Assembly: GCA_963769425.1 (NCBI GenBank)
Contig: CAVYLP010000006.1
Location: forward strand, 128,001-192,000
Length of the DNA stretch: 64,000 nucleotides
Direction of reading: 5' to 3'
Source of the DNA: Candidatus Bathyarchaeota archaeon
GTDB lineage: Archaea; Thermoproteota; Bathyarchaeia; TCS64
Position numbers and translations under genes: made by a program. Shown in pieces: positions 1 to 33,988 of this stretch (within the stretch, counting starts at the first letter, position 1; the number at the start of each line of letters is the position of its first letter). Under the pieces are notes generated by a model. It did not search any database. It had not been told where the DNA came from and was given only the letters and a program-made list of their open reading frames with translations.

Positions 1-12
1 CTTGTGTTGGCT

Positions 13-3380: not shown

Positions 3381-3393
3381 CATATATTAAAAG
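3381..3393 (-). promoter_or_regulatory. Probable TATA box for the LOR/SDH transcript
   Basis: TTTTAATATA on the minus strand ~25 nt upstream of the GGTGA SD-like motif (3360-3356). Confidence 0.45.
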
Positions 3394-4044
3394 TTACTGA
3401 AATGTTAATCGAGAGTAGGATCCCCTACAGTGTGGGCTTCCTTGATTTCGCATTTTTATTGATTTTCCTCCTCTCTATCGTGCGGGGTGTCACTGAGTTA
3501 TAGGTAACACATTCACCCACGCAACACTCTTTCAGCAAAGAGTTTGACTGTTAACTCACCGTCTTTCGAAAACTGATTCACCGTCATGCTGGTTTTACCA
3601 AGCACTCCAGCCGACACGCGAGGGTGATTGAGAAACCAAGTATTGCCCCAAGGGTTGCATTAAAAACCCATTACGTTCAGGAGGATTTTTTTTAAATATT
3701 ATAAAATTAACCTAACCGATACTAGCTAGGAAACATCTCTATTGCAGAGATAAAGATTATTGAGAATAAATAGACAGAAACTAAAAAAGGAATAAGAAGA
3801 TAGCACCGAAAAATCATCCAATTTCAACTAAAAGAAACATAAGAATTTAACACAAGGACTGAATGAGAGAGAAATTGAAGGAGCTAGGAAGAGAAAGAAG
3901 CTAAAAACCCGTACTTAAGGCCCGCATATAAATATAATGAATAATTTCTTAGAAATGTGTGCTCGGTCTGATGAGACCCAAGATAATCTATTATGAGTCT
4001 GATTTACTTTAAATAATATTTAGTGACATATGACATAGTCAGAA

Positions 4045-5388
4045 ATGGGGGTTATCACGAGTCACATGTCGCTTACTTCTGAGATGAGTCGAAAGGTGGA
4101 TGCCCTTCATAAACTCGTCACTAAGATGGCCAGAATGAACACCCTAAACGAGGTCTATACGTCCAGCTTCGACTTGCTCGGTAACCTCGATTTCTCTGTT
4201 AGCATCTGCATAGGTGTGGTGGAAGGGGATCTTCTCAGATTAACCTGCGCCAAGAATGTTCTTGATGCAGTTGCCGATCTTCCCCGAGGTGGCAAGGGGA
4301 TCATGGTTCGAGCGTGGCAGACAGGGGCCACGCAGGTCGTTAATGACACTCGGTTAGACCCTGACTTTGTTACTTCTAGACAGATTAACTACCTATCAGA
4401 GATGGCTGTTCCGGTGTGGTTCGATGGAAACGTCGTCGCGGTGATTAACATCAAGGACCAGAGAGCCGACGCTTTCACGGAGAGCGATCGGCAGATCGTC
4501 GAGATCCTGTCCGAGCATATGTCATCAACCATGTACAGGATCCGGCAGTCCTTGGAGCTGAGCGAGTCAGAGTCTAGATATCGTACATTGGTCGAGAACT
4601 CTAATGACGCTATACTCGTCGTGTCCTCTTCAACAATCGTCTACGTGAACACCGTCACAGCGAAGCTCTGTGGTTATGATAAGCCTGAGGAGATTATCGG
4701 TAAAGATGCTTTGGGATTCATCTCGCAGCGGTACCGCGAACAATTTAGAGAGCGGATTAAGAGCAGGCTCGAGGGTGAGCCGCAGCCAAGGAGATTTGAC
4801 CATGAGATAGTGAGGAAGGATGGCTCTATCATTCAGGTCGAAACCACCGCTTCGCTGATTAATTACGGTGGTAATCCAGCGGTTCTGTTCGTGGGACGAG
4901 ACTTGACGGAGAGGAAAAGGTTCGAGTCGAAGCTTTTCGCCCTCCATAAGCATGCGGCTCAGCTTGGTGCAGCGGAGACCATGGTCGAAGTCTCCGAAAC
5001 CACGCTTAGCGCTATCACCTCCGTAATGGGTTTCAAGCTGGCCAACTTCTTGGTGAAAGAGAGTGACAGCTTAGGTTGTATCGACGACGTTGGGTTTGGA
5101 TCGACCTATTGGAGTGTGCCAATAGAAGGGGAAGGAAATATTCCTCGGGCAGCTCGTGAGAAAAAAACGGTGCTTGACAATGATCTGAGTGGAGACTCTG
5201 ATCCCTATAAGAGCCAGCATGGTATCCGGTCACAGCTCGCTACGCCCGTGGTCATACAGGGAGAGGTGGAGGCGGTCATCAGTGTCGAGAGCACGAAAAA
5301 AGGGGCCTTCATAGATTCCGACGTGCAGATCCTTGAGATAATCGCGCAGCACGTCGCATCCGCCTTGGAAAGGATAGGGCACAGCTGA
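4045..5388 (+). CDS. GAF-PAS-GAF sensor protein with no output domain
   Basis: SEMAVPV..GNVVAVIN..AFTESD GAF; SESRYRTLVENSND..RDLTERKR PAS/PAC; second GAF (SQLATPV..AFIDSD). Confidence 0.82.
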   Translation: MGVITSHMSLTSEMSRKVDALHKLVTKMARMNTLNEVYTSSFDLLGNLDFSVSICIGVVEGDLLRLTCAKNVLDAVADLPRGGKGIMVRAWQTGATQVVNDTRLDPDFVTSRQINYLSEMAVPVWFDGNVVAVINIKDQRADAFTESDRQIVEILSEHMSSTMYRIRQSLELSESESRYRTLVENSNDAILVVSSSTIVYVNTVTAKLCGYDKPEEIIGKDALGFISQRYREQFRERIKSRLEGEPQPRRFDHEIVRKDGSIIQVETTASLINYGGNPAVLFVGRDLTERKRFESKLFALHKHAAQLGAAETMVEVSETTLSAITSVMGFKLANFLVKESDSLGCIDDVGFGSTYWSVPIEGEGNIPRAAREKKTVLDNDLSGDSDPYKSQHGIRSQLATPVVIQGEVEAVISVESTKKGAFIDSDVQILEIIAQHVASALERIGHS

Positions 5389-5884
5389 TCACGGCGTATT
5401 CAATACACTGCGTGCGACTCTAATTCTAGGAAACGATGATAACCAGAGGAGAGATGTGCCAGGGGATAAAACTACAGAAGGCGGAATATTATCGTGATAG
5501 TTCACGAGCGTGCTATATCGTCATCGATTGACAAGTCTTCGAAAGATGATCCGATCTTGAGTACAGAATAAGGAATCGCTGATCGTCACTCACTGCTGAC
5601 CAGAAAGCGCTTGTCTAGTTATTCTGCAGCGACGACCTGAAAATCTCCATCCCAGGCCCAACCAATAGGGCACCTGCCCAGAATAACACGGACACCTTGG
5701 GCCGAGTTATGAAAAAAGAAAGTTCAGGGAGTTAAACGAAGCCTGAGCCTCAGAACCGATGAAAGAAAATGCTGCGAATTGAAACGATTTAGAGGATAAA
5801 TGGAACCCACGGTAGGAGCTGCTGAATCATCCTTGGATGAACTCATATCTAAGTAGTGGTGATAGTTCCATACTGTGAGTCAAC

Positions 5885-7063
5885 TTGGTGTATGACTTCG
5901 ACACAATAATCGACAGACTCTCGACGAGCTCCTCGAAGTGGAGCTATAGGAAGAAGATGACCGGATACGAGGACATTCTCCCCATGTGGGTCGCCGACAT
6001 GGACTTCGCCTCCGCACCAGAAATAGTAGCCGCAATCAAGGAACGAGCCGCCCATCCAATCTACGGCTACACCTCTAAGACCGACGGCTACTTCAACGGC
6101 ATGATCAACTGGATGGCGAAGCGCAACGGGTGGAAGGGCATCCAGCGTGACTGGATCCTCTCGAGCCCCGGCGTCGTCCCCGGCTTCAACTACTGCGTAC
6201 AGGCCTACAGCCAACCCGGGGACAAGGTCTTAATCCAGCCCCCAGTCTACTACCCTTTCAAGAACGCCATACTTAACAACGGCCGCCAAGTCGTCGACAA
6301 CCCACTGAAGATCGTCGACGGCTACTACGTGATGGATTATGAGGACCTCGAGAAGAAGATCGACGGCAGGACGAAGATGCTCATTTTCTGCAGTCCGCAC
6401 AACCCGGTCGGCCGCGTCTGGAAGAAGGACGAGCTAAAGCACATGGCCGAGATCTGCGAGAAGAAGGACATCGTTATCGTCAGTGACGAGATCCACAGCG
6501 ACCTCATCCTGGGGAAGATCAAGCACACCTGCACCGCTACACTCAGCGACGACGCCCTAATGCGAACGGTGACCCTCACGGCCCCTAACAAGACATTCAA
6601 CATCGCCGGCCTGCAGAACGCCGACGCCATAATCCCCAACAAGAAGCTCAGGGACGCCTTCTTCAACGTCACGCAGAACAACAGCGTCAGCAATCCCAAT
6701 ATCTTCGGCATAGTGGCTCAGGAGGCCGCGTACGCGAAGGGTGAGCCGTGGCTCGAGGAGCTGCTCAAGTACCTGAAGGCAAACCTCGCATACTTCGAAG
6801 AATACTTCAAGAAGAACATGCCAATGCTCAAGGTCTACCCGCTCGAGGGCACGTACCTCGCCTGGGTCGACTTCACGGCCCTAGGCATGGGCGACAAGGA
6901 GCTACACACGTGGATGCTCGAGAAGGCGAGGCTCTGGCTCGACGACGGCGTAATGTTCGGCGCCGAGGGCAGCATGTACATGCGCTTCAATATCGCGTGC
7001 CCACGCGCCATGCTCAAGGACGGCCTCGACAGACTCGCGAAGGCGGTCAAGGCACACAAGTAG
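5885..7063 (+). CDS. MalY/PatB family PLP-dependent cystathionine beta-lyase
   Basis: LPMWVADMDF, CSPHNPVGRVW, SDEIHSD, APNKTFN (PLP Lys), GTYLAW. Confidence 0.92.
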   Translation: MVYDFDTIIDRLSTSSSKWSYRKKMTGYEDILPMWVADMDFASAPEIVAAIKERAAHPIYGYTSKTDGYFNGMINWMAKRNGWKGIQRDWILSSPGVVPGFNYCVQAYSQPGDKVLIQPPVYYPFKNAILNNGRQVVDNPLKIVDGYYVMDYEDLEKKIDGRTKMLIFCSPHNPVGRVWKKDELKHMAEICEKKDIVIVSDEIHSDLILGKIKHTCTATLSDDALMRTVTLTAPNKTFNIAGLQNADAIIPNKKLRDAFFNVTQNNSVSNPNIFGIVAQEAAYAKGEPWLEELLKYLKANLAYFEEYFKKNMPMLKVYPLEGTYLAWVDFTALGMGDKELHTWMLEKARLWLDDGVMFGAEGSMYMRFNIACPRAMLKDGLDRLAKAVKAHK

Positions 7064-18514: not shown

Positions 18515-19003
18515 TTGGTGGATTCTAAGATTCGGATAGGGCTCCGCGTGAATGGGGCCTCGTATGGTTTGAACGTTGAGCCTAGGCGGACGCTCCTCGA
18601 CGCCCTCCGGGAGGACCTGCATCTCACGGGGACGAAGAAGGGCTGCGACATGGGGGAGTGCGGCGCCTGCACCGTCCTCTTAGACGGGAAGCCTGTCTAC
18701 TCCTGCCTCCTACTCGCAGTCGAATGCGAGGGGCACGAGGTGAGGACCATCGAGGGTCTATCAGAAGGGGAGAGGCTCGACCCGATCCAGATGGCGTTCA
18801 TCGAGTACGACGCCCACCAGTGTGGCTTCTGCACACCCGGGCAGATAATGGCCATCCGTGGCCTCTTAGAGGCGAACCCAGACCCGACTCCCGAGGAGAT
18901 ACGCGTCGGCGTATCCGGCAACATCTGCAGGTGCGGCGCCTACCACCGAATCCTCAAGGCTGCGGCCGCGGCCGCCCAAGTCTACCGGGAGGGGAGCGAA
19001 TGA
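18515..19003 (+). CDS. Xanthine dehydrogenase family 2x[2Fe-2S] subunit
   Basis: GCDMGECGACT, QCGFCTPG, GNICRCG; exact start uncertain (18491-18518). Confidence 0.92.
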   Translation: MVDSKIRIGLRVNGASYGLNVEPRRTLLDALREDLHLTGTKKGCDMGECGACTVLLDGKPVYSCLLLAVECEGHEVRTIEGLSEGERLDPIQMAFIEYDAHQCGFCTPGQIMAIRGLLEANPDPTPEEIRVGVSGNICRCGAYHRILKAAAAAAQVYREGSE

Positions 19004-21303
19004 CGAAGCTGATCAAGACGAGAATCGAGTTCGAGGGGACAACGCATGAGGAGCTCTCCCTGGTGGAGGGGGAGGAGCCGAGGGTCTGGGGGGCGGACGC
19101 CGAGCTCAGGATCGTCGGGAGGAGCGTCGCGAAGATCGACGGTGCAGAGCGCGTAACGGGGCGGGCTCGCTACACTGCGGACATTCAGCTACCAGGGATA
19201 CTGCACGCGCGAGCACTCCGCTCGCCCCTCCCGCACGCCCGGGTTAAGCGCATCAACACATTCAAGGCCGAGGCACTACCCGGCGTCCGCGCTGTTCTGA
19301 CACATGAGAACGCGCCGAGGCTGAGGTGGCTGAACGGCACCGAGATCCTCGACGGCGTAGCGAGGTTCGCGGGGGAGGAGGTGGCTGTCGTCGCCGCGGA
19401 CGACGAGGAGACTGCCGAGGAGGCGCTTGGCCTCATGGATGTGGAGTTCGAGGCGCTGCCATTCGTCGTCGACTCGGAGGGGGCTGGGAAGGAGGCGGCG
19501 CCGAAGATACACGGTGGGAGCAACCTGCTCGGCGGGGAGCCGAGGGTCTACCAGCGCGGGGACACGAAACGTGGCCTCGGGGATGCTTACGCCGTCGTCG
19601 AGGGGACCTTCACGACGCAGACGGCGGTGCACAACTGCATGGAGACTCATGGCGCCGTAGCTCAGTGGGAGGGAGACCGCCTCACAGTCTGGGAGTCAAC
19701 GCAGTCCATAGCGAACACGCGCGAGCATCTAGCCGCGGCCTTCAACCTCCCCCTCGACAAGGTGAGGGTCATCTGCAACTATATGGGCGGCGGATTCGGG
19801 AGTAAGCAGAGGGCGGGGAAGCACACCCTCCTCGCCGCCGTGCTCGCAAAGCAGACGCACCGACCCGTGAGGATGGTGCTTTCGAGGAAGGAGGACAGCC
19901 TAATGACGGGGAACAGGCAGGCAACCGTCCAGCACCTGAGGATCGGCGCGAAGCGCGACGGGACACTCACCGCGATAGAGATGGTGTCCAGTGGGGAGAT
20001 GGGCGCCTACGGAGCCTACGCGATGCCCATCGAGGGCCCCGCCCAGACCCTCTATGCGTGCCCCAATGTGAGGACTGAACATAGTCCCTACTTCACAAAC
20101 ATGGGGATGGCAACCGCCTTCAGGGGTCCCGGCTACGTCGAGGGCAGTTTTGCCCTAGAGTCGCTCATGGATGAGCTCGCTGACAAGCTGGGGATTAACC
20201 CGCTCGAGTTTAGGCTCAAAAACTACGCAAAGGCCGACCCGAGGAGCGGGCTGGCTTTCTCCCAGAAGAACCTCGATGAGTGCTATAGGAAGGGGGCGGA
20301 GATGATTGGCTGGGAGAAGGGATGGAAGGGATGCAGGACGGCCTCGAAGTGCAGAGCGATGGGCGTCGCTAGCCAGATCTGGGGAGGAGGCGGAGGACCG
20401 CCCGCTTACTCCTGGGTGAAAATGAACCCCGATGCCAGCTGGGAGGTTATAATAGGTGGGCAGGACATCGGCTCCGGGACGAAGACGGTCTTCGCCCAGA
20501 TAGCGGCTGAGGAGTTGGGGATTAGTCTGGAGAGCGTCTCCGTGAGGATGGGTGACACCGACGCGAGCCCCTACGCCCCCGTCAGCTCGGGGAGCCGCAC
20601 AACTCCGTCCGTGGGCCCAGCGGTCCGCCAGGCCGCGGCAGACGCAAAGAAGCAGCTCATCGAAGTCGCCGCGGGGTACATCGAGGTGCCCCCCGAGCAG
20701 GTCAGGTTCCAAGACGGCGCTTTCTACGTCGGGAAGGATAAGGAGCCCCGCTTAAAGATCGAGGACCTCACCGACGCCCTGGACGAGCTTACCATCCTCG
20801 GGAGAGGGATCAGGGGGCCGAACCCCTCTAGCAAGGAGCTACTCACCTTCGGAGCGCAGTTCGCCGAGGTTGAGGTCGACATAACCAACGGTGACGTTGA
20901 CGTCATCAGGGTGGCGACAGTGCTCGACTTCGGGAGGGTGATGAACCCCCTCGGCGCGGGCAGCCAACTTGAGGGCGGTGTAGCACAAGGTATCGGCTTC
21001 ACCCTGAGCGAGGAGCGGGTCGTGGACAGGCGGGACGGGGTCGTCTTAAACCCGAACATGGAGGACTATCTCATCCCCACGGCGATGGACATGCCTCAGT
21101 TGGAGTACTCGTTCGTGGACAAGCCTGATGAGGTGGCCAACAACATTGGCGCGAAGGGGCTCGGCGAGCCACCTATGATACCCACCGCACCGGCGATCGC
21201 GAATGCCATTGCACGCGCCACAGGGATCAGGATTCGATCAACACCCCTCACTAGGACGAAGATACTCGAAGCGCTCACGGCGACAAAGGAGGCAGCGAAA
21301 TGA
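19000..21303 (+). CDS. Xanthine dehydrogenase family molybdopterin-binding subunit
   Basis: GGGFGSK, AFRGPG, QDIGSG, SSGSRT, AKGLGEPP; ATGA overlap with the upstream gene. Confidence 0.92.
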   Translation: MTKLIKTRIEFEGTTHEELSLVEGEEPRVWGADAELRIVGRSVAKIDGAERVTGRARYTADIQLPGILHARALRSPLPHARVKRINTFKAEALPGVRAVLTHENAPRLRWLNGTEILDGVARFAGEEVAVVAADDEETAEEALGLMDVEFEALPFVVDSEGAGKEAAPKIHGGSNLLGGEPRVYQRGDTKRGLGDAYAVVEGTFTTQTAVHNCMETHGAVAQWEGDRLTVWESTQSIANTREHLAAAFNLPLDKVRVICNYMGGGFGSKQRAGKHTLLAAVLAKQTHRPVRMVLSRKEDSLMTGNRQATVQHLRIGAKRDGTLTAIEMVSSGEMGAYGAYAMPIEGPAQTLYACPNVRTEHSPYFTNMGMATAFRGPGYVEGSFALESLMDELADKLGINPLEFRLKNYAKADPRSGLAFSQKNLDECYRKGAEMIGWEKGWKGCRTASKCRAMGVASQIWGGGGGPPAYSWVKMNPDASWEVIIGGQDIGSGTKTVFAQIAAEELGISLESVSVRMGDTDASPYAPVSSGSRTTPSVGPAVRQAAADAKKQLIEVAAGYIEVPPEQVRFQDGAFYVGKDKEPRLKIEDLTDALDELTILGRGIRGPNPSSKELLTFGAQFAEVEVDITNGDVDVIRVATVLDFGRVMNPLGAGSQLEGGVAQGIGFTLSEERVVDRRDGVVLNPNMEDYLIPTAMDMPQLEYSFVDKPDEVANNIGAKGLGEPPMIPTAPAIANAIARATGIRIRSTPLTRTKILEALTATKEAAK

Positions 21304-22280
21304 GGAGATTCACACACGTCGACGCCACAACAATCGAAGAAGCACAGAAATTATTGGGAGAAACAGAGACCCGAGCGTTAGCTGGTGGGTCGAACATCAT
21401 TCCCCTCATGAAGCTGGGGATAGCGAAGCCGGATAGGCTCGTGAACATAAAGCCAATCCCGAAGATGGATGGCATCAGCTTCACGGAGAAGGAGGGGCTC
21501 AGGATAGGCGCCCTCGCGACCATCGACTCCATAGCCAACAACAAGATGGTAAAGGAAAAATACCCCCTCCTCTCCGAGGCGGCCTCATCCATAGCCTCCC
21601 CCCAAATAAGGAACGTTGCCACCCTCGGGGGGAACCTAACACAGGAGCCGAGGTGCTGGTACTATAGGGGACCCCAGCCCTGCTGGCTCAAGGGTGGGAG
21701 GATGTGCTATGCTGCGGCGGGTGAGAACGAGCACCACGCCATACTCGGCGCCGGCACCTGCAACAGCGTCCAGCCATCCGACTCAGCCCCGGCTCTGGTT
21801 GCGCTGGGAGCCACAGCCAACGTAGCGGGTATCAGTGGAGAGCGAAGCATCCCAGTGGATGAGCTATTCCAGAAGCCCGTGGAGGGCTCCAAGAGGCTCT
21901 CAGCCCTCAAGCCGGGAGAGCTCATCACGAGGGTCATAGTACCGCCGCCGAAGGCCGGTGGCACAGGGACCTACATCAAAAAGATGAACAGGCGTGTCTG
22001 GACGTTCGCTTCAGTAAGCATCGCAGCACAACTTACCATGAAAGACGGCACTGTGGAGGATGCGCGCCTCATCCTCGGCGGCGTCAGCTCGATCCCCTGG
22101 CAGCTGAGCCCGTCTGAGGCCGCCCTTAGAGGGCACCCCCTAGACGAGGGGACCATTGAGAAGGCCGCCGAAGCTTCGACCCAGGGAGCCCGCCCCTTGA
22201 AGCACAACGGTTACAAAGTCCCCTTAGCGAGGGCGGTGGTGACCGAGGCGCTCACAAAGTTACGCTCCAGGGCCGCCTGA
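21300..22280 (+). CDS. Xanthine dehydrogenase family FAD subunit with [4Fe-4S] insertion (PaoB/HcrB-like)
   Basis: LAGGS, ASPQIRNVATLGGN, and a four-Cys insert RCWYYR..C..C..C. Confidence 0.9.
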   Translation: MRRFTHVDATTIEEAQKLLGETETRALAGGSNIIPLMKLGIAKPDRLVNIKPIPKMDGISFTEKEGLRIGALATIDSIANNKMVKEKYPLLSEAASSIASPQIRNVATLGGNLTQEPRCWYYRGPQPCWLKGGRMCYAAAGENEHHAILGAGTCNSVQPSDSAPALVALGATANVAGISGERSIPVDELFQKPVEGSKRLSALKPGELITRVIVPPPKAGGTGTYIKKMNRRVWTFASVSIAAQLTMKDGTVEDARLILGGVSSIPWQLSPSEAALRGHPLDEGTIEKAAEASTQGARPLKHNGYKVPLARAVVTEALTKLRSRAA

Positions 22281-23583: not shown

Positions 23584-24399
23584 TTACTTTGAGACCCTGA
23601 GGTAGACGTACCAGTAGGCAGCCGCGACGAAGAGGCCGCCACCGATGAGGTTCCCGATCGTCACGGGGATGAGGTTACTAAGGAACCCGGAGAGGTTGAG
23701 GCTGCTCAGGTCGAATCCTGATGCGGCCGCTGCGGCCGGGTTTCCGCCCACTAGGATACCGAAGGGTATCATGAACATGTTCGCGACGCTGTGTTCGAAG
23801 CCCATCGCGACGAAGGCGGCCACGGGCATCATGCAGGCGAGTATCTTCCCGGCGGTGGATTCGGTCGAACCCGATATCCAGATGGCGAGACAGACGAGCC
23901 AGTTACAGAGGATACCCCTTATGAGGGCCTCGCTGAACCCGAGGCCGACCTTCATAGTCGATATGTCGAGGGCGCGCATGGACACTGCCGAGCCATAGAT
24001 AGCGTAGCTCCCGCTGGCGAAGATCAGCCCAGCGAGAGCGACGGCTCCGACTAAGTTACCCAAGTATACGATTACCCAGTTCTTGAGGACGGCACCCAGT
24101 TTCGCCCTCCCGGATAGGCACGCCATTGTGAGCAGACCGTTCCCCGTGAATAACTCACCCCCAGCGAGGACGATCAGCACGAGGGCGGTCGAGAAGGCAA
24201 GCCCACCCACGTACATGGCGAGGCCGTTACCGAGGTACCGAGCTGCATCGCTGGTCACCACGATGTAGAGGAAGCCGCCGAAACCCACGTACACGCCGGC
24301 TAGCATCGCTAAGACGAAGATCTTCCTCAGAGGCGTGTTCACCTTGCCGCTGTAGTATGAGCATAGTTGCTCAGCTATCTCACTCGGCTTCCGCGACAT
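23584..24399 (-). CDS. Formate/nitrite transporter (FocA/FdhC family)
   Basis: GGELFTGN, CNWLVCLA, GFEHSVANM, GNLIGG. Confidence 0.93.
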   Translation of the reverse strand: MSRKPSEIAEQLCSYYSGKVNTPLRKIFVLAMLAGVYVGFGGFLYIVVTSDAARYLGNGLAMYVGGLAFSTALVLIVLAGGELFTGNGLLTMACLSGRAKLGAVLKNWVIVYLGNLVGAVALAGLIFASGSYAIYGSAVSMRALDISTMKVGLGFSEALIRGILCNWLVCLAIWISGSTESTAGKILACMMPVAAFVAMGFEHSVANMFMIPFGILVGGNPAAAAASGFDLSSLNLSGFLSNLIPVTIGNLIGGGLFVAAAYWYVYLRVSK

Positions 24400-24475
24400 C
24401 CATTGTTCCTATGCGGTTTGGGCTAGATTCTAATAAAGAATACCAAAGTGGGATGCGTCGAGAAGCCTCAAGGGC

Positions 24476-25036
24476 TTAACGAGGAGTCTTATCCTTCACG
24501 ACTATCGTCTGAGCAAGGTATGTGAATATCCTCTGGCTCTTCTGCGTCGTGAATATCCAGCCGAGGACAACGTCCAGCAGGATTAGGGCGCCGAAGGCCT
24601 TCCCGAAAGACTCGATGGCGGCCTGCCCTAGGGTGATGTGCCCCTCGTTGAGGTTCGTGACCTTGATCTTCATGATCATCTTCCCGATGCTGGCGCCGTA
24701 GGTGTAGTCCATCCAGATGAAGTAGATGAAGAAGGCGACCTCCCGGAGGCCGTAGCTCGTGAATGGCGTGTACCGGAAGTACGGCATACCCCCGGTGAAG
24801 CTGAGCGTCGGTAGGGCGATGACGAAAGTCAGAATTCCGAATACAATGCCGAAGATGATGGAGTCGATGATGAACGCGATTATCCTCTCTCCCCAGCCGG
24901 CGAGGTCTATCACCTTTGCCGCCTCCATCGCGGGGGCGGGCGCAGCGGCCGAGGGTTGAGGGGCTGGCGTGCCGCACTGCTGGCAGAAGGCCGAGCCCTC
25001 CTTGAGCTCGGCTCCGCACTTCTCACAGTTTACCAT
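24476..25036 (-). CDS. Zinc-ribbon + RDD family membrane protein
   Basis: CEKCG..FCQQCG; ERIIAFIID; ASIGK. Confidence 0.8.
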   Translation of the reverse strand: MVNCEKCGAELKEGSAFCQQCGTPAPQPSAAAPAPAMEAAKVIDLAGWGERIIAFIIDSIIFGIVFGILTFVIALPTLSFTGGMPYFRYTPFTSYGLREVAFFIYFIWMDYTYGASIGKMIMKIKVTNLNEGHITLGQAAIESFGKAFGALILLDVVLGWIFTTQKSQRIFTYLAQTIVVKDKTPR

Positions 25037-25094
25037 GCTTCAGTCTCCTTGACTCACTGAAAAGTAGGGCAATTAATAACACTACCTGAGCCGG

Positions 25095-25601
25095 TCAGAA
25101 TGCGACCTCGGCTGACTTCTTCCCCGTCAGCTCCTCGAGGACTATCCTACCGACGGCTGTCTTTGCAAGGTTCGCGGCCACATTGGGGCCCTCGAGGCGC
25201 TTGAGTAGTTCGCCTGGCTTCTTCTTCTCCTGGGTGTGTATCATGTGTGCGAGTACCTTCTTCTTCTCCTCGACATCCTCGACGAACTCGACGCGTCCTT
25301 TGAAGACGGCGGAGACGTAGAGGTGGCTGCACTGCTCGGCGTAGTAGCCATGGTCGATGACGGCTATCCCCGAGACGGCGGGGTTGGCCCTCATGAAGTC
25401 GAGCTTCTTGCCCTCGGCGGCGCAGTGGAAGTAGAGGCAGTTGGCCGCCTCGTCGTAGCTGTGGCTGAGGGCCACCGCGTAGGGCTCCCCGTCTCTGGAG
25501 AGGGCGAGGGTCACGTATGTGGTCTCCTTTAGGATCTTGGCCAGCTTGGCCTTGTCCTTGATCTCCTTGTCGCCGCGGCGCATGTGGTATGTCTTTGCCA
25601 T
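25095..25601 (-). CDS. Pyridoxamine 5'-phosphate oxidase-like flavin-binding protein (NimA-like)
   Basis: MRRGDKEI, PYAVAL, LYFHCAAEGKK, LTGK; GAGGTGA SD upstream. Confidence 0.85.
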   Translation of the reverse strand: MAKTYHMRRGDKEIKDKAKLAKILKETTYVTLALSRDGEPYAVALSHSYDEAANCLYFHCAAEGKKLDFMRANPAVSGIAVIDHGYYAEQCSHLYVSAVFKGRVEFVEDVEEKKKVLAHMIHTQEKKKPGELLKRLEGPNVAANLAKTAVGRIVLEELTGKKSAEVAF

Positions 25602-25643
25602 GGGTTATGCTCCGTCACCTCGCTAATAACGGTTGGCGGGGGG

Positions 25644-27662
25644 CTAAGCCTTCTCGACTCGCACGGCGCATGCCTTGAACTCGGGTATCTTGGACTCGGC
25701 GTCGACGGCGTTGTTTGTGAGGATGTTCGCGGAGGCCTCGGCGAAGTGGAAGGGTATGAAGACGACTCCCTCCTTGATGCCATCAGTCACCCGAGCCCGG
25801 AGGGTTATCTCACCCCTCCGGCTCGCGACCCTCACGAGGTCATTGTAGTGGACACCAAGCCTCTCGGCGTCGGCCTCGTTGATCTCGATGAAGGCCTCGT
25901 TTATCTGGTCGGTGAGGGTTGGGCTCCGCCGCGTCATGGTCCCGGTGTGCCAGTGGAAGAGGACGCGCCCCGTGGTGAGGATCAGAGGATACTTCTCGTC
26001 CGTCTCCTCTGCGGGGGGCCTGTGCTCGACGACGTGGAACCTGCCGAGTCCCCTGCTGAACTTTTCCGTGTGGAGTATGGGGGTGCCGGAGTGGTCGGAG
26101 GAGGGCACGGGCCACCTGAGCCCCGAATCCCCGAGCCTCGCGTGGCTCACGCCCCTGTATATTGGGGTGATAGCGGCGATCTCGTCCATCACCTCCGAGG
26201 GGTGCCTGTACCCCATCTGGTAGCCGAGTCGGGTCGATAGCTGGCTGAGTATCCACCAGTCTGGCCTAGCGTCGCCGATGGGTTCAACCGCTTTATGGGA
26301 TAGCTGGATTCGGCGGTCCGTGGCGGTAAATGTGCCGTCCTTCTCCGCGTAGCTCCCCGCGGGGAGGACGACGTCAGCGACGCGCGCCGTCTCGCTCATG
26401 AACAGCTCGGAGACGACTAGGAAGTCGAGCTTCTTTAGCTGCTCCTCGACGTGGTGGGTGTCGGGGTCGCTCATTAGGGGGTTCTCCCCCATGACGTACA
26501 TCACTTTGACCTTCTCGCCGGCGCCGTTGATCTTCTCGGTGAGGGTTAGGCCGGGCGCCTCGGGAACCTCCGCACCCCATGCCTTGCCCACGCGGCTACG
26601 TGCCTCGGGGTCGGCAACTCTCGCGTACCCAGGGAGCAGATCGGGCAGCGCCCCCACATCGCAGGCACCCTGCACATTGTTTTGGCCGCGGAGCGGGTTC
26701 ACCCCTGTTCCTGGGCGCCCGATGTTCCCCGTGAGCATTGCGAGGTTCGCGGTGCTGAGGACGTTGTTGACGCCGGTTATGTGCTGGGTGATGCCCATGC
26801 TGAAGAGGATCGCCGCCCTCTCGGCGGAGGCGTAGATGCGCGCAGCCTCCCTAATCTTCCCCGCGGGGACGCCGGTTATGCCCTCGGCGTACTCGGGGGT
26901 GTACTTCTTGACGTGTTCCCTGAGGGCCTCGTAGCCCTCGGTGCGCCTCGCTATGAAGTCCTCGTCTTGGAGCCCCTCGGCTATGATTGTGTTCATCATC
27001 GCGTTGAGTAGGGCGATGTCAGTGCCGGGTCTGTGTTCGAGGTGGAGGGTAGCGTACTCGGTTAGGGGGATGGCCCGGGGGTCGGCGACTATGAGTTTCG
27101 CACCATTCTTCACGGCCCTTATGACTCGGCGCGCGAGGAGGGGGTGCTGCTCAGTCGTGTTGGAGCCGATGACGAGGAAGACGTCCGCCTCCTCGAGGTC
27201 CTCCTGGCTGTTTGTCATGGCGCCGCTGCCGAAGGCGCGTGTGAGTCCGGTGACGGTGCTGCTGTGGCAGAGGCGGGCGCAGTGGTCGATGTTGTTCGTC
27301 CCCACGGCGACCCTTGCGAGCTTCTGCATCAGGTAGTTCTCCTCGTTGGTCGCCTTGGCAGAGGCAAGGAAGGCGACTGAGCCGGGGCCGTATCGCTCCT
27401 TGAACTCCCTGATCTTGGAGGCGACGAGGTCTAGGGCCTCCCCCCAGGTGGCCTCCCTGAAGCCCTCGCCGTCCCGGATGAGGGGCTTCGTGAGCCTGTC
27501 GGGGTGGTGGATGAACTCGTGGGCGCTCCACCCCTTTATGCAGAGCTTGCCCTCGCCGGGTCCAGCGTCGTGTGGGAGGACTCCGACGACTCTCCCGTCC
27601 CTAACGTGGAGCCTGAGTAGGCACCCGACGCCGCAGTAGGGGCACACGGCTGTGACGTTCAA
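25644..27662 (-). CDS. fdhA: Formate dehydrogenase alpha subunit (FdhF-type, Cys-ligated Mo/W-bisPGD)
   Basis: CPYCGVGC..C [4Fe-4S]; DHCARLCHS active site (Cys, TGC codon); LRGQNNVQGACD; TTG start overlapping the hdrB TGA. Confidence 0.92.
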   Translation of the reverse strand: MNVTAVCPYCGVGCLLRLHVRDGRVVGVLPHDAGPGEGKLCIKGWSAHEFIHHPDRLTKPLIRDGEGFREATWGEALDLVASKIREFKERYGPGSVAFLASAKATNEENYLMQKLARVAVGTNNIDHCARLCHSSTVTGLTRAFGSGAMTNSQEDLEEADVFLVIGSNTTEQHPLLARRVIRAVKNGAKLIVADPRAIPLTEYATLHLEHRPGTDIALLNAMMNTIIAEGLQDEDFIARRTEGYEALREHVKKYTPEYAEGITGVPAGKIREAARIYASAERAAILFSMGITQHITGVNNVLSTANLAMLTGNIGRPGTGVNPLRGQNNVQGACDVGALPDLLPGYARVADPEARSRVGKAWGAEVPEAPGLTLTEKINGAGEKVKVMYVMGENPLMSDPDTHHVEEQLKKLDFLVVSELFMSETARVADVVLPAGSYAEKDGTFTATDRRIQLSHKAVEPIGDARPDWWILSQLSTRLGYQMGYRHPSEVMDEIAAITPIYRGVSHARLGDSGLRWPVPSSDHSGTPILHTEKFSRGLGRFHVVEHRPPAEETDEKYPLILTTGRVLFHWHTGTMTRRSPTLTDQINEAFIEINEADAERLGVHYNDLVRVASRRGEITLRARVTDGIKEGVVFIPFHFAEASANILTNNAVDAESKIPEFKACAVRVEKA

Positions 27663-28540
27663 GCGGTCAGCCTCCCGAGCTTCTCCTCCAGGGCGGGGTC
27701 CCTCACCCTGTGCTGCTTTACCCCGGCCTCGTCGAGGTTCACCCCCATCGCGAGGGCGAGGAGCTGGAGGTAGTAGAGTGTGGGGACTCGGTAGTCGAGT
27801 TTGAGCTCGCGCGAGGCGAGCATCTGCCCCGTGTCGAACTGGTAGAAGCACTGTGGACAGATGACGGTGGAGCAGTCGGAGGAAGCCGCGTGCATAGCGC
27901 CGAGCTTGACGCCGAGGAGACGATTCGCCGACTCCCGGTCACCGTAGTTTGTCAGCGTCCACCCGCAGCACCCGGTCTTCTTATCCCAGTCTACTGGGGT
28001 GGCGCCGAGCGCCTCAACCATCGAGTCGAGCACCGTTGGGTTAAGTGGATCGTCGAAGCCCATCGCTTCGGGAGGGCTGAGGATGTGGCAGCCGGGGTGG
28101 CACGCGACCCTGAGGCCCGTCAGCGGCTTCTTCACGGCGGACCTGATTCCCCCGATGTCCTGCGACAGTACCTGAGCGTAGTGTCTCACCTCAACTGTTC
28201 CCTTGAACTGGTGCCCGGTCTCAGCGAGGATGTCGTTCACCTTCTCCCTAAGCGCCGCGTCTCGCTTCAGGGTCTGGTTGGCTTGCCTCAGTGTGTAGGT
28301 GCAGCCATTGCAGAGCGTTAGTATGTCGAACCCCGCCTCCTCGGCGAGGCAGATGTTTCTCGCGGCTATAGCGAGCCCCGTGGTCTTGTCAGTGAGGAAC
28401 CCGACGGGCTCGGGGCAGCAGCTGAAGCCGTCGATGTCGGCGAGTTCTACGCCGAGTTTGGGGAGTACCATCCGTGAGACGGCCTCGAGGTGGGGGAGGC
28501 GCACGGGTATGAAGCAGCCGAGGAAGAGGGCGTACCTCAT
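27659..28540 (-). CDS. hdrB: Heterodisulfide reductase subunit B-like (two CCG domains)
   Basis: LFLGC, SCCP, TLCNGC, HPGCH, GCCG, ICPQCFYQFD. Confidence 0.88.
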   Translation of the reverse strand: MRYALFLGCFIPVRLPHLEAVSRMVLPKLGVELADIDGFSCCPEPVGFLTDKTTGLAIAARNICLAEEAGFDILTLCNGCTYTLRQANQTLKRDAALREKVNDILAETGHQFKGTVEVRHYAQVLSQDIGGIRSAVKKPLTGLRVACHPGCHILSPPEAMGFDDPLNPTVLDSMVEALGATPVDWDKKTGCCGWTLTNYGDRESANRLLGVKLGAMHAASSDCSTVICPQCFYQFDTGQMLASRELKLDYRVPTLYYLQLLALAMGVNLDEAGVKQHRVRDPALEEKLGRLTA

Positions 28541-29025
28541 TGCTTTGCCCCCCTGAGCCTCTCGGCGAGGCGGGTCCTCTCAGCTATCTTCGCGAGGTCG
28601 GCGATGGGCGGGGATGGTAGGAGCCTGAGGTTTAAGGCCAGCCTCTGCCTCTCAGTCGCCCCGGTGAGGGGAAAGGCGAACCCCGTCGAGACGATCTGAT
28701 TGACCTCCGCCAGGATGGTCGGGTGCACCCAACCGGCGTCGAGGGCATCACCCTTCAGCGTCTCTATGAAGTGGATGGGGGAGACCTCGTAGGGGCACGT
28801 CTCCTCGCACTTGTGGCAGCTGACGCAGAGCCAGATGTTGGGGTTCGAAGCCCCCTTCTCGGATGCGAGGCAGTCATAGACGAATGTGTATCGGGGGTTG
28901 AACCTGTGGTCATTCATGACGTGGCAGCTGTGCGCCACGGTGCAGCAGACGCCGCACTTTAGGCATACCTCGGCGGCTCCGCGCCTACCGCCCTCGTCGT
29001 CCCGGTAAACGGCCCTGATCGCCAA
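28537..29025 (-). CDS. hdrC: Heterodisulfide reductase subunit C-like 2x[4Fe-4S] protein
   Basis: CLKCGVC..C and IWLCVSCHKCEETCP; ATGA overlap with hdrB. Confidence 0.8.
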   Translation of the reverse strand: MAIRAVYRDDEGGRRGAAEVCLKCGVCCTVAHSCHVMNDHRFNPRYTFVYDCLASEKGASNPNIWLCVSCHKCEETCPYEVSPIHFIETLKGDALDAGWVHPTILAEVNQIVSTGFAFPLTGATERQRLALNLRLLPSPPIADLAKIAERTRLAERLRGAKQ

Positions 29026-29077: not shown

Positions 29078-29293
29078 CTACTTCTTCTTCGTCTTCTCCG
29101 CCTTCTTGCGGAGGTACCATGTCTCGCCCTTGGGACTCGTGTCTATGACGAACTCCGGGTTGTAGGCGAGCATCTCCTTGACGAACTCGCGCATCTTTAT
29201 CTGGACGCCGTCGCTCCTTACGATGTCCTCGTCTAGGTTTATAACGACCTTTCTTCCCTTGTCGAGCTTCGATGGCATGAGGATCACCAACAA
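29078..29293 (-). CDS. Small hypothetical protein
   Basis: ORF with host-like codon usage upstream of hdrC; may start at ATG 29278. Confidence 0.55.
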   Translation of the reverse strand: MLVILMPSKLDKGRKVVINLDEDIVRSDGVQIKMREFVKEMLAYNPEFVIDTSPKGETWYLRKKAEKTKKK

Positions 29294-31054: not shown

Positions 31055-33988
31055 TTGTCTAGGAAAGGGCTCTCCCAGAAGAAGGACTTGGAAAAGGTGG
31101 GGCGGACAGAGTTTCCGGTCGTGGGCATCGGGGCCTCGGCCGGTGGCCTCGAGGCCATACAAGCGCTTCTTAAGGGTCTCCCCCAGGACACGGGGATGGC
31201 CTTCGTTATCGTGCCCCACCTCTCAGCCGAGCACAAAAGCGCACTCGCCGAGATTCTCTCCCGGAACACGGGCATGCCCGTTAACGAGGTCGCGGGGAAG
31301 ACGACCATCGAGCCAAACCGGATATACATCATCCCGCCCAACCACAACCTCTCGATTAAGAATGGCGCTCTGATCCTAGAGCAGGTGGATAAGGAGGCTA
31401 AGCTGCCGCGCCTCTCGATAGACCACTTCCTCACCTCCCTCGCCGAGCAGGAGAAGGACAGGGCGATTGGGGTCATACTCTCTGGCACGGGCTCGGACGG
31501 CACGAAGGGTGTGCAAGCCATAAAGGCGGAGGGAGGCATCACCTTCGCGCAGAGCGAGGAGACGGCGAAGTTCCCGGAGATGCCGAGGAACGCGGTGGTC
31601 TCGGGGAAAGTGGACTACATTCTCTCCCCCGGGGAGATCGCTGTGAATCTCGTCAAGATAAAGCCGAGGATTGAGTACCTCACCGGGACACACGATGAGT
31701 ACACTGACCCCTCGAAGGAGAACGCCTTCCAGAGAGTCATCGCAACCCTAAGGACCCAGAAGGGCATCGACCTCAGCCACTACAGGCGCTCTACTCTCAA
31801 CCGCAGAATAAACCGGCGGATGATACTCAGGAGCATAGACAAGATCGAGGACTACGCGTACCTCCTCAACGGGGACGCGAAGGAGGTGGAGGCCCTCTTC
31901 CAGGACGCCCTCATAAACGTTACAAACTTCTACAGGGACAAAGAGGCCTTCGAGGCTCTTAAGGCGAAGGTCTTCCCGAGCATCGTCAAGGACAAGGACA
32001 TCTCTAGGTCGGTGAGGATCTGGGTCCCCGCGTGCTCGACAGGGGAGGAGGCCTACACCATCGCGATGTCCCTCTTCGAGTACCTGGGCGACCAGAGGAA
32101 GGATGTCGCCATCCAGATCTTCGCCACGGACGTTAACGATCAGACCATCGCGAAGGCGAGGATCGGCGTCTACGGCGTGAACGCCGTCGAGGAACTCCCC
32201 GCCGATGTTCTGAGCCGCTACTTCACGCAGACGCAGCCGGGGCAGTACCAGGTCAAGAAGAGCATAAGGGACGTCTGCATATTCGCTAAGCACGACCTCC
32301 TCACTAACCCGCCCTTCGCCAACATGGACCTGATAAGCTGCAGGAACCTCCTCATCTACCTTGACGACACGCTGCAGGAGAGGGTGTTCACCCTCTTCCA
32401 CTATTCGCTGAAGAGCCACGGCTACCTGATGCTGGGGAAGTCGGAGTCCGCGGCACGCTTCAGGGACCTCTTCGAGGACGTGGATAAGTCGAACAAGATC
32501 TACGCCAAGAAGGCCTCGACGAGGGGGAGGAACGCCATACCGTATCTCCAGCCCTCGGACTTCAGGCCCGAGTGGGTGACAGCCCCTGTCGGGGTGGTAG
32601 AGAGGAAGGACTTCGCCTCGACACTCCAAAGGGAGACGGACCGCCTGATACTAAGCGAGCTTACGCCCCCCGGCGTGGTCGTCAATAGTGAGTTCGACAT
32701 ACTCCAGTTCCGAGGAAAGACCGGCCTCTTCCTCGAGCCCGCCTCGGGCTCGCCGAGCTTCAACCTGATGAAGATGGCCAGGGGCTCCCTCGGCGTGAAG
32801 CTTAGACTCGGCGTTGAGCGAGCAAAGAAGGAGGGGGTCCTCGTCGCCATTGAGGACGTTGAGGTTAGGCGGAACGGGGGCACGGCCCGTGTCGATGTCG
32901 AGGTCCGCCCGTTCAGGTTGGCCGACGACGAGGAGAGGTTCTACCTCATCGCCTTCAGGGAGAGGGGCGCGGCGAAGGAGGGAAACCAGGAGGTGGAGGA
33001 GGCCACTCTAACCGAGGAGCACAGGGACGCCGAGATAACCCGGCTCAAGAAGGAGCTCGAGGAGACGCGGGCGTACCTCCAGACCTACGTCGAGGAGAAG
33101 GACGCGAACACAGAGGAGTTGCGGTCGGCGAACGAGGAGCTACAGGCGAACTACGAGGAGCTTCAGAGCATAAACGAGGAGCTCCAGACCGCCCGCGAGG
33201 AGTTGCAGGCGTCGAACGAGGAGCTGAGGACCGTCAACGAGGAGCTCGCCGCCAGGAACGCGGAGATCAGCGACGTCTACAACGTGCTGGAGAACATGAT
33301 CAACAGCTCGAACCTACCTATCATCATGGTGGATGGCAACCTAAGGATCAGGAGGGTGACCCCCACGGCTCGCAGGGTCTTCAAAATGATACCCAGCGAC
33401 GTCGGGCGCCCCCTCGGCGACCTCAAGCTCAATCTCAGGCTCCCCAACCTCCTCGAGCTGGTGGGCAACACCCTCACCACCTTCACCTCTAAAACTATGG
33501 AGGTGCAGGACAACGACGGCCGCTGGTACAGCATGAGTATACAGCTCTACAGGACGACGGAGAACAGGATAGACGGTGCCGTCATCACATTCGTCGACAT
33601 CGATAATCTGAAGAGGGCGGAAGCATCGGCTCAGCGACTTGCAGCTGTACTGGCTCAGTCTGACGACGCCATAACGACTCTGGACGATGAGGGTAAGATA
33701 ACGGCGTGGAACAGGGGGGCGGAGGAGATGTACGGCTACGCCACCTACGAGGCGATGGGCATGAACATCTCAGCCCTCACCCCGCCGGGGGACCTGCCCG
33801 AGATGATCGGGGCCCTCGGAAAGGTGAAGAGGGGTGAGTTCGTCCCGCAGTTCAGGTCGAGGCGCCTCACGAGGACCGGCAAGACAATCGAAGTCATGCT
33901 TACCCTGACGAAGCTCGTGGACGACTCGGGGAAGACGATCGCGATAGCCAGCCTCGAGAGTCGCGTCCACGACGGCTCACACAAGTGA
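31055..33988 (+). CDS. CheB-CheR fusion with PAS and coiled-coil domains, no kinase domain
   Basis: CheB triad GASAGG/VPHL/GSDG; CheR NVTNFYRD, ACSTGEEAY, CRNLLIY; EELxxx heptads; two C-terminal PAS domains. Confidence 0.9.
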   Translation: MSRKGLSQKKDLEKVGRTEFPVVGIGASAGGLEAIQALLKGLPQDTGMAFVIVPHLSAEHKSALAEILSRNTGMPVNEVAGKTTIEPNRIYIIPPNHNLSIKNGALILEQVDKEAKLPRLSIDHFLTSLAEQEKDRAIGVILSGTGSDGTKGVQAIKAEGGITFAQSEETAKFPEMPRNAVVSGKVDYILSPGEIAVNLVKIKPRIEYLTGTHDEYTDPSKENAFQRVIATLRTQKGIDLSHYRRSTLNRRINRRMILRSIDKIEDYAYLLNGDAKEVEALFQDALINVTNFYRDKEAFEALKAKVFPSIVKDKDISRSVRIWVPACSTGEEAYTIAMSLFEYLGDQRKDVAIQIFATDVNDQTIAKARIGVYGVNAVEELPADVLSRYFTQTQPGQYQVKKSIRDVCIFAKHDLLTNPPFANMDLISCRNLLIYLDDTLQERVFTLFHYSLKSHGYLMLGKSESAARFRDLFEDVDKSNKIYAKKASTRGRNAIPYLQPSDFRPEWVTAPVGVVERKDFASTLQRETDRLILSELTPPGVVVNSEFDILQFRGKTGLFLEPASGSPSFNLMKMARGSLGVKLRLGVERAKKEGVLVAIEDVEVRRNGGTARVDVEVRPFRLADDEERFYLIAFRERGAAKEGNQEVEEATLTEEHRDAEITRLKKELEETRAYLQTYVEEKDANTEELRSANEELQANYEELQSINEELQTAREELQASNEELRTVNEELAARNAEISDVYNVLENMINSSNLPIIMVDGNLRIRRVTPTARRVFKMIPSDVGRPLGDLKLNLRLPNLLELVGNTLTTFTSKTMEVQDNDGRWYSMSIQLYRTTENRIDGAVITFVDIDNLKRAEASAQRLAAVLAQSDDAITTLDDEGKITAWNRGAEEMYGYATYEAMGMNISALTPPGDLPEMIGALGKVKRGEFVPQFRSRRLTRTGKTIEVMLTLTKLVDDSGKTIAIASLESRVHDGSHK

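Follow-up and report, generated by a model that had tools for sequence, protein, structure and literature searches.

Heterodisulfide reductase (Hdr)-type enzymes are abundant in uncultured anaerobes that are not methanogens. How these enzymes are fed with electrons and which substrate they act on has been a long-standing question, which is raised in papers on Bathyarchaeota, anaerobic methanotrophic archaea (ANME), and sulfate reducers alike. A formate-fed system is known from methanogens, in which the complex FdhAB-MvhD-HdrABC (PDB 7BKB and 9T1S/9SFI) takes electrons from formate and delivers them to an acceptor at the HdrB site. Here we describe a trio of genes, hdrC-hdrB-fdhA, in a 64,000-nucleotide stretch of DNA (hereafter the window) from a Candidatus Bathyarchaeota archaeon (GCA_963769425.1, contig CAVYLP010000006.1). 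The encoded proteins belong to the same catalytic families as those of the methanogen complex, and are predicted to share its donor and its site of electron acceptance. However, the trio differs from that complex in that its operon and flanks hold no gene for FdhB, MvhD, or HdrA, its HdrB falls in a separate clade, and CoM/CoB/Mcr genes were not found in the host genome.

Several other systems join an HdrCB-type module to a partner that does not perform flavin-based bifurcation. These include HdrDE of Methanosarcina, DsrMK of sulfate reducers, and the thiol:fumarate reductase TfrAB. There, the module is fed or drained by a cytochrome b in the membrane or a quinol, or by a fumarate-reductase flavoprotein, whereas the partner in the trio is a soluble molybdopterin formate dehydrogenase. 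With regard to formate oxidation, the trio resembles FdhF-HycB of formate hydrogenlyase and hydrogen-dependent CO2 reductase (HDCR, 7QV7), wherein a minimal FdhF-type enzyme with one [4Fe-4S] cluster is linked to a small subunit carrying several such clusters. In the trio, however, this small subunit is HdrC (Fer4_8/Fer4_17) rather than a HycB-type Fer4_11 protein, and the chain would end at HdrB rather than at a hydrogenase.

Two further Hdr systems operate outside methanogens. The sHdr-LbpA system of Hyphomicrobium denitrificans combines a sulfur-oxidizing Hdr-like enzyme with a lipoylated GcvH-like carrier that has its own LplA ligase (PMC6067878). Unlike the trio, this system has HdrA and no formate dehydrogenase. 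FlxABCD-HdrABC, the NADH dehydrogenase/heterodisulfide reductase of anaerobic bacteria, is an Hdr system with an alternative electron input in non-methanogens (PMC12125255, PMC5947623). HdrA is retained in it, and bifurcation has been proposed, whereas the trio and a NuoEF-type sister variant described below do without HdrA.

The formate-Hdr clusters that our literature search turned up all contain HdrA. Besides the methanogen complex, they are divergent FdhAB with HdrA in ANME (PMC9012536), HdrBCA-MvhD-FdhBA in Chloroflexi and Desulfobacula (PMC5736913), and the HdrA gene-cluster types of methane-metabolizing archaea (PMC12054007). Two papers on Bathyarchaeia handle FdhA and Hdr separately (PMC8407382, PMC9534799), and the preprint on an Asgard isolate presents “FdhA” as a stand-alone formate-producing enzyme (10.1101/726976). 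Atribacterial transcripts for HdrB-like and FdhA-like proteins were read by their authors as signs of bifurcation (PMC7542362). Public databases name the trio proteins heterodisulfide reductase subunits B and C and formate dehydrogenase alpha. Our literature search found no description of hdrCB-fdhA without hdrA, although supplementary gene tables could list such clusters.

The hdrC-hdrB-fdhA Order Recurs Across Archaea and Bacteria

The trio opens a series of six co-directional minus-strand genes within positions 23584-29025 of the window: hdrC, hdrB, fdhA, a PNPOx-like gene, an RDD gene, and focA (Table 1). An earlier examination of the window from its letters alone (the sequence-only reading) had noted that hdrC, hdrB, and fdh are linked by overlapping stop and start codons. 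Both junctions are indeed 4-nucleotide (nt) overlaps, with ATGA at 28540-28537 between hdrC and hdrB, and TTGA at 27662-27659 between hdrB and fdhA. The TTG start of fdhA is favored because the sequence GGGAGG is located 9 nt upstream.

To determine how widely this order is retained, FdhA was used to search 401 Bathyarchaeia genomes, of which 95 matched at E ≤ 1e-50. The 30 best loci, whose FdhA proteins are 60-100% identical, were inspected, and 28 of them have the order hdrC-hdrB-fdhA. A profile of FdhA-linked HdrB proteins was searched against one genome per species from all prokaryotes and yielded 80 loci. In 47 of these fdhA directly follows hdrB, 2 end at hdrB, and the remaining 31 are without fdhA. 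Metagenome contigs, queried with a second profile, provided another 80 loci, and the FdhA-linked trio is present in 21. Going by record titles, the carriers among the genome loci include Bathyarchaeota, Promethearchaeota (Asgard archaea), Chloroflexia, Dehalococcoidia, Thermodesulfobacteriota, and Atribacterota. The synteny, for which the sequence-only reading had proposed a search of archaeal genomes, is thus strongly conserved, and it crosses phyla to include bacteria.

The spacing of the genes is also retained. Of 41 hdrC-hdrB junctions, 30 are 4-nt overlaps, as are 27 of 46 hdrB-fdhA junctions, and the other gaps range from -14 to +17 nt, apart from a single value of -64 that is an artefact of start-codon choice. 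The three genes are thus not neighbors by coincidence, since their order and close spacing are repeated in many genomes. One locus counted among the 47, from a metagenome-assembled genome (MAG) of Promethearchaeota (L109:4882-5337), has just the N-terminal ~95 residues of FdhA after hdrB, and the remainder of the frame is unrelated sequence. This fdhA gene is either disrupted or misassembled.

We conclude that the trio represents a widespread HdrA-less FdhA-HdrC-HdrB module, which is a new variant within the known Hdr enzymes and not a new enzyme class. The function that we favor, with some reserve, is that of a soluble, non-bifurcating formate:disulfide oxidoreductase, predicted from comparative genomics to act independently of HdrA, MvhD, and FdhB.

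Mutual Exclusion of fdhA and hdrA Next to hdrCB

The operon had been described in the sequence-only reading as being without HdrA, MvhD, and FdhB. This statement holds for the operon but does not extend to the genome, which encodes seven MvhD matches, several HdrA proteins, and one FrhB/FdhB-family protein elsewhere. A HdrA homolog (≥100 bits) was found in the flanks of none of the 47 FdhA-linked genome loci (flanks of up to 4 kb) and none of the 21 metagenome loci (up to 5 kb), compared to 17 of 33 other HdrB loci in genomes and 23 of 59 in metagenomes. Genes mvhD and fdhB are likewise never present in the flanks of these loci (0/47 and 0/21). Beside hdrCB, fdhA and hdrA therefore exclude each other. 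Three paralogous operons of the host genome are organized as hdrC-hdrB-hdrA, and fdhA of the window thus occupies the place that hdrA has there.

The exclusion is mirrored in the phylogeny of HdrB. A quick maximum-likelihood tree of 84 HdrB rows was made with IQ-TREE, and the 47 FdhA-linked rows are all contained in a single group of 53 rows. For this group, the Shimodaira–Hasegawa-like approximate likelihood-ratio test (SH-aLRT) gives 83, with 97 at the next fork out. Only two changes of the FdhA-linkage label are needed on this tree, and none of 500 shuffles gave a number as low. Outside the group are the five included HdrB-type paralogs of the host genome (four HdrA-linked and one orphan), HdrB proteins of Methanosarcinales/ANME, and HdrB from a canonical hdrB-hdrA-mvhD-fdhA-fdhB cluster (L052) that is found in another Bathyarchaeia genome.

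One bacterial genome carries the trio with no HdrA or MvhD detected. In this Atribacterota MAG (G403, 2.3 Mb, completeness not given), neither HdrA, sought with a protein query, nor MvhD, sought with a family model, was found, and there is no CCG protein other than the trio HdrB.

The Subunits Retain Their Ligands, and HdrC Is Fused to FdhA in Some Relatives

The protein encoded by fdhA scores 911.2 bits against TIGR01591, above the cut-off of 666.25, and it is the sole FdhA above this cut-off in the host genome. Its best PDB sequence matches are 9t1s_L (808 bits), 7qv7_S (FdhF of HDCR, 710 bits), 7bkb_D (685 bits), and the 1aa6/7z0t family (589 bits). The domain scan identified Molybdop_Fe4S4, Molybdopterin, and Molydop_binding only, which agrees with the sequence-only reading in that this is the minimal FdhF type with one [4Fe-4S] cluster and no extra ferredoxin domains. 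Residues C7/C10/C14/C41, which make up the N-terminal four-Cys [4Fe-4S] site, do not vary among 30 orthologs, and neither do C132-H133 or the R325-G326 motif. We take the Cys (or selenocysteine)-His pair and the Arg to be the catalytic residues by analogy to E. coli FdhH. In five bacterial orthologs an in-frame TGA codon is present exactly at the position of Cys132, and a TGA there is a hallmark of selenocysteine formate dehydrogenases. These five proteins are thus predicted to carry selenocysteine at the active-site position.

In a second molybdopterin-oxidoreductase region of the host genome (L044; G000:C6:105201-107215), the FdhA model aligns to four separate pieces, and an in-frame TGA is present in two of these. 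The region may encode a selenoprotein or a FwdB-like enzyme, or it may be a frameshifted gene.

For HdrB and HdrC, the best-scoring models are those of the methanogen subunits, but each score is below its cut-off. HdrB reaches 270.4 bits against TIGR03288 (cut-off 345.15), whereas HdrC reaches 53.6 bits against TIGR03290, far under the cut-off of 160. TfrB and QmoC families are also among the model matches. All five PDB sequence matches of HdrB are methanogen HdrB proteins over the full length, at 195-234 bits, and include 8rvu_b (234, the best), 9sfi_C (214), and 7bkb_B (195). Similarly, the best PDB sequence matches of HdrC are methanogen HdrC chains, with 8rvv_C at the top (53.7 bits) and 43 bits for 7bkb_C. 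The ten cysteines of the two CCG motifs of HdrB (C9, C41, C42, C77, C80, C151, C191, C192, C228, and C231) are conserved without exception in 25 close orthologs, and the corresponding alignment columns do not vary among 15 distant ones either.

Among 34 FdhA-linked HdrC orthologs, C21, C24, C27, C67, C70, C73, C77, and P78 show no variation, and at least 90% have C34. The sequence-only reading had called the first cluster motif of HdrC atypical. Its spacing is as had been stated, C-x2-C-x2-C-C-x5-C, but the cluster is not lost, because a lineage-specific insertion leaves the four ligands in place and both four-Cys [4Fe-4S] motifs are present. This insertion adds a loop of 4-5 residues between the third and fourth ligands and is confined to the closer Bathyarchaeia relatives. 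Normal spacing is seen in Asgard, bacterial, and deeper Bathyarchaeia orthologs, as well as in HdrA-linked paralogs, and the loop is therefore not required for the link to FdhA.

Natural fusions of HdrC to FdhA were identified in three sequence sets: L055:5283-7721 (-) in genome G108 (812 amino acids), L029:1-2379 (-) in G180, and JGI cluster P0007 (826 amino acids). In these proteins an HdrC core is joined to the N terminus of FdhA in one reading frame, and hdrB is gone. Genomes G108 and G180 belong to the same genus as the window. The fused core is 50% identical to HdrC of the window over 101 amino acids and keeps both Cys motifs. Because FdhA of the fusion nests beside the group of the window in the FdhA tree, the fusion derives from the trio. 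Its existence speaks for a direct transfer of electrons between FdhA and HdrC, as far as can be predicted from gene structure. At the fusion locus of G108, a gene for a C_GCAxxG_C_C redox protein lies upstream and an RDD gene lies downstream.

Hdr Genes Elsewhere in the Host Genome

The host genome comprises 2.55 Mb on six contigs and is 91.3% complete. In addition to the seven MvhD matches and several HdrA genes, it has 13 CCG matches in seven HdrB-type genes. Its Hdr loci, as defined by Pfam matches, include the three hdrC-hdrB-hdrA operons, which occur with or without mvhD, one Mvh-HdrD-like-MvhD-HdrA cluster, and one orphan hdrC-hdrB pair. A further locus (L039:4127-10222; G000:C6:52126-58221) has the order hdrC-hdrB-Fer4-FAD_binding_2-hdrA/mvhD, wherein FAD_binding_2 is a flavoprotein of the fumarate-reductase type. 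This operon resembles a hybrid of thiol:fumarate reductase and Hdr. The only FrhB/FdhB-family gene is located on contig C3, beside a gene for ADP-forming acetyl-CoA synthetase.

Proposed Reaction and Its Alternatives

From the observations above, we infer that the three proteins may form a physical complex with a defined electron path. Formate would be oxidized at the molybdenum/tungsten bis(pyranopterin guanine dinucleotide) (Mo/W-bisPGD) site of FdhA, which includes Cys132-His133, and the electrons would exit through the single [4Fe-4S] cluster of this subunit. They would then traverse the two [4Fe-4S] clusters of HdrC and be received by two CCG-bound clusters of the noncubane type in HdrB, where a disulfide would be reduced. 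The FocA channel would supply or remove formate. FdhF-type enzymes are known to dock onto ferredoxin-like subunits, and this path is proposed because FdhA is close to FdhF-type enzymes whose structures were solved with small subunits of that kind. Since the trio has no flavin, it would not bifurcate. The suggestion in the sequence-only reading that Fdh hands electrons directly to HdrC and HdrB gains support here from comparative genomics, namely from the synteny, the exclusion of hdrA, the lack of mcrA, comA, and comDE matches in the host genome, the fusion, the separate HdrB clade, the sister variant in which NuoEF replaces FdhA, and the carrier G403.

The formate/CO2 couple has a potential of about -430 mV, and lipoamide one of about -290 mV. 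For CoM-S-S-CoB, a value of -138 mV has been revised to -281 mV (PMC12054007). At standard potentials, the forward reaction from formate to disulfide is strongly downhill. If formate is low (micromolar) and the dithiol has a low potential, the reverse reaction, from thiol to CO2, could be possible.

Several observations weigh against a trio that acts on its own. In an alternative model, FdhA-HdrCB would dock on HdrA and MvhD encoded elsewhere, and provide the formate input and disulfide output of a larger bifurcating complex like methanogen FdhAB-MvhD-HdrABC. The host genome has the seven MvhD matches and several HdrA genes, with HdrA/MvhD at six loci other than that of the trio. One of these (C1, ~140 kb) combines HdrA/MvhD with Mvh hydrogenase (MvhA) without its own hdrBC, and could borrow those of the trio. 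MvhD is present in 27 of 28 verified Bathyarchaeia carriers, the miss (G207) being just 62% complete, and in 330 of 401 Bathyarchaeia genomes, while HdrA is present in four of five carriers from other phyla. Moreover, the canonical arrangement of L052 exists in the same class. It is also odd that energy-limited organisms would pass electrons from formate directly to a disulfide, which wastes much free energy. The HdrB clade is based on a quick tree with a SH-aLRT value of 83, the completeness of G403 is not given, and the fusion is rare (three sequence sets from one genus) and without HdrB, such that it shows contact between HdrC and FdhA and not the whole trio. Because most carriers also hold MvhD or HdrA, co-occurrence cannot separate the two models. 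Nevertheless, we consider docking unlikely. It is difficult to reconcile with the absence of hdrA from the flanks of all 68 trio loci in the two sets (0/47 and 0/21), with the missing FdhB, which is the electron carrier between FdhA and MvhD in complexes of known structure, and with the placement of the trio HdrB in a clade other than that of HdrA-linked HdrB proteins. In addition, an HdrC::FdhA fusion would, as we see it, short-circuit a bifurcating flavin, and G403 has the trio with no HdrA or MvhD found there.

A different possibility is that FdhA and HdrC constitute a ferredoxin-type formate dehydrogenase pair, and that HdrB feeds a quinone-like or other acceptor, as in fumarate reductases of the SdhE type, GlcF, GlpC, and LutA. 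CCG proteins with such non-disulfide partners are known, and the fusion form works without HdrB. Furthermore, HdrB of the window matches SdhE, the membrane-anchor subunit of MFR, with 171.6 bits (E 2.5e-50). Its scores are far higher for methanogen HdrB, however (270 bits for TIGR03288, and 195-234 bits for PDB chains), the ten cysteines of both CCG motifs are invariant, and neither membrane subunits nor genes related to quinones are recurrent neighbors of the trio, which together make this explanation improbable. The favored formate:disulfide oxidoreductase could also run in the opposite direction, wherein a dithiol carrier is oxidized at HdrB and FdhA makes formate that is exported by FocA as a fermentative or syntrophic sink. 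A FocA homolog is encoded in the trio flanks of 7 of the 47 genome loci, from separate lineages, and of 3 of the 21 metagenome loci, and clustering of the neighbors of the 47 loci revealed that FocA is the sole one to recur across lineages. This recurrence shows that formate traffic matters to the trio, but it leaves the direction unfixed, given that FocA is bidirectional. Asgard relatives carry the trio, and a cultured Asgard archaeon has been proposed in a preprint to dump electrons as formate (10.1101/726976). Likewise, transcripts of atribacterial HdrB-like and FdhA-like genes have been noted in subseafloor sediment (PMC7542362). However, operation in reverse is uphill at standard potentials and needs very low formate and a low-potential dithiol. 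We give it a smaller but real chance.

Candidate Disulfide Substrates

The sequence-only reading had noted that methanogenesis genes are lacking in the window, and this extends to the host genome, in which McrA (PF02249), ComA (PF02679), and the alpha subunit of sulfopyruvate decarboxylase (comDE, TIGR03845) were not found at 91.3% completeness. Given these results, CoM-S-S-CoB is an unlikely substrate of the trio in this organism.

The leading candidate, albeit a weak one that we hold with considerable doubt, is a lipoylated carrier similar to GcvH or LbpA. In a locus from Dehalococcoidia (L106), the order is hdrC-hdrB-fdhA-lipA-gcvH, with a Lpd-like gene upstream. The host genome has four GcvH-family genes versus a single glycine-cleavage set. 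Two of these are paralogous GcvH-like genes with DGC-domain genes downstream: in L144:1441-2299 a DGC-domain gene directly follows a GcvH-like gene, and in L142:2299-3133 DGC and OsmC-like genes lie ~0.5 kb downstream of a GcvH-like match. These arrangements hint at a role for lipoyl carriers as donors in thiol redox reactions unrelated to glycine cleavage. Counting against the candidate is the observation that a GcvH gene is near the trio in just 1 of 47 genome loci (L106) and in none of the 21 metagenome loci, and the window has no GcvH/LbpA or LplA gene.

An association similar to that of sHdr and LbpA does occur in this Bathyarchaeon. At L143:346-2378 (G000:C6:5523-7555) of the host genome, next to L038, genes for a lipoate-protein ligase (LplA), a GcvH-like protein, and a HycI protease are arranged in a row beside MvhAG-HdrD-like-MvhD-HdrA.

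Two other kinds of thiol protein were considered. DsrC was rejected as the substrate, since the sole TusE/DsrC-like gene is on another contig, is unlinked to the trio, and encodes a non-canonical C terminus with two Cys residues four residues apart. A small protein of the CMD/AhpD family is encoded close to four trio loci that belong to different lineages (L123:2773-3126, L070, L132, and L155), twice together with FocA, and is a possible thiol-disulfide partner.

Other Wirings of the Same Subunits

The six rows of the HdrB group that are not linked to FdhA come from a distinct type of locus, with a nuoE-like gene, a nuoF-like gene, a gene for a 2Fe-2S/Nqo3-type protein with an HdrC tail, and hdrB, but no hdrA. 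Loci of this NuoEF type include L097:674-4867 and L105:793-4876, as well as L096, L098, L099, L104, L157, and L167. Based on gene content, this variant looks like a NAD(P)H:disulfide oxidoreductase that functions without HdrA.

In Bathyarchaeia, FdhA is also found in other settings. Some FdhA proteins have long N termini of the NuoG type and are encoded beside NuoF/NuoE-like genes. Others are part of the canonical cluster of L052, of a formate-hydrogenlyase-like arrangement with a HycB-type protein and an antiporter subunit, or of a combination with Fer4_22 and a FAD/NAD reductase. Yet another locus (L057:2463-6924, in G046) has the order Fer4_11 (HycB-like)-Fer4-fdhA-hdrC-hdrB, with an FdhA that is 41% identical and no hdrA in its flanks. 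Across these gene orders, FdhA acts as a plug-in module in Bathyarchaeia, and the trio is its commonest wiring among the closest homologs.

Gene Neighborhood of the Trio and Other Features of the Window

Table 1. Genes of the trio region, with positions in the window
Gene	Positions	Strand	Features
Small conserved gene directly upstream of hdrC	29078..29278	-	66 amino acids, without Cys, basic lysine-rich tail
hdrC-like	28537..29025	-	162 amino acids, TTG start; Pfam Fer4_8/Fer4_17; ferredoxin-like subunit with 2x[4Fe-4S]
hdrB-like	27659..28540	-	293 amino acids; two CCG domains (PF02754 x2, 87.5 bits); putative disulfide-reducing site
fdhA	25644..27662	-	672 amino acids, TTG start; putative cytoplasmic Mo/W-bisPGD formate dehydrogenase, one [4Fe-4S]
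PNPOx/Nim-like FMN-binding split-barrel	25095..25601	-	Pyridox_ox_2, PF12900, 63.7 bits
RDD-family membrane protein with N-terminal zinc ribbon	24476..25036	-	PF06271 and zinc ribbon
focA-type formate/nitrite channel	23584..24399	-	PF01226, 246 bits

The sequence-only reading had placed a flavin-binding PNPOx/NimA-like gene 42 bp after fdh, and a FocA/FdhC channel two genes past it. Both placements are accurate: the gap from fdhA is 42 nt, with GAGGTGA ahead of the ATG, and the channel gene is of the FocA type. Equivalog models for Nim score just 51-54 bits on the PNPOx-like protein, relative to cut-offs of 260-270. Beyond the closest relatives (L009, L010, L012, L060, L062, and L065), the gene is not found 3′ of fdhA, and for this reason the PNPOx/Nim-like protein was rejected as a fourth core subunit. 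The RDD gene similarly accompanies the trio or the fusion form only in near relatives. Scattered neighbors of the trio among the 47 genome loci encode TBP, gamma-glutamyltranspeptidase (three loci), a Lpd-like pyridine-nucleotide disulfide oxidoreductase (three loci), DJ-1/PfpI, and FMN reductase.

The small gene upstream of hdrC has tblastn matches in 11 genome loci and three metagenome loci. Most are immediately ahead of hdrC, two are ~0.8 kb upstream, and one, at the NuoF-variant locus L167, is on the opposite strand. Its 66-amino-acid product matches no Pfam family, and its AlphaFold2 model (mean predicted local distance difference test score 71.6, predicted TM-score 0.45) has no PDB fold match at E ≤ 0.001. 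An A/T-rich box is located upstream of this gene, which may be the first of the transcription unit.

Elsewhere in the window, positions 31055-33988 (+) encode a protein of 977 amino acids with a CheB methylesterase, a CheR methyltransferase, and several PAS domains. At 18658-22280 (+), an open reading frame of 881 amino acids for a Mo subunit of the xanthine-dehydrogenase/aldehyde-oxidase family is followed by a FAD-binding subunit, upstream of an ABC-type FtsX permease. The G+C content is 37% at 52001-54000 and 45-49% at 1-6000, compared to ~60% elsewhere, and these low-G+C stretches may be islands of foreign or surface-glycan genes.

Implications for Hdr Enzymes Outside Methanogens

With three soluble subunits, a formate donor, and no flavoprotein, no simpler Hdr system than the trio has been found to date. 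It spans five or more phyla, among them the Asgard archaea, which are related to eukaryotes and whose syntrophy has been proposed to be driven by formate transfer. Being so small, the trio should be a convenient entry point both to the missing “heterodisulfide” of non-methanogens and to the question of whether HdrBC can operate on a soluble donor without bifurcation.

We speculate, with little confidence at present, that non-methanogenic sediment archaea and bacteria such as Bathyarchaeia, Asgard archaea, Chloroflexota, and Atribacterota keep a protein-bound dithiol/disulfide pool, most plausibly of lipoylated GcvH/LbpA-like carriers, as a soluble currency of intermediate potential. FdhA-HdrCB (with formate) and NuoEF-HdrC′B (with NAD(P)H) would feed or drain this pool, and HdrA complexes would bifurcate with it. 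If true, this would explain the purpose of “orphan” Hdr enzymes outside methanogens, and would tie Asgard formate syntrophy to thiol chemistry.

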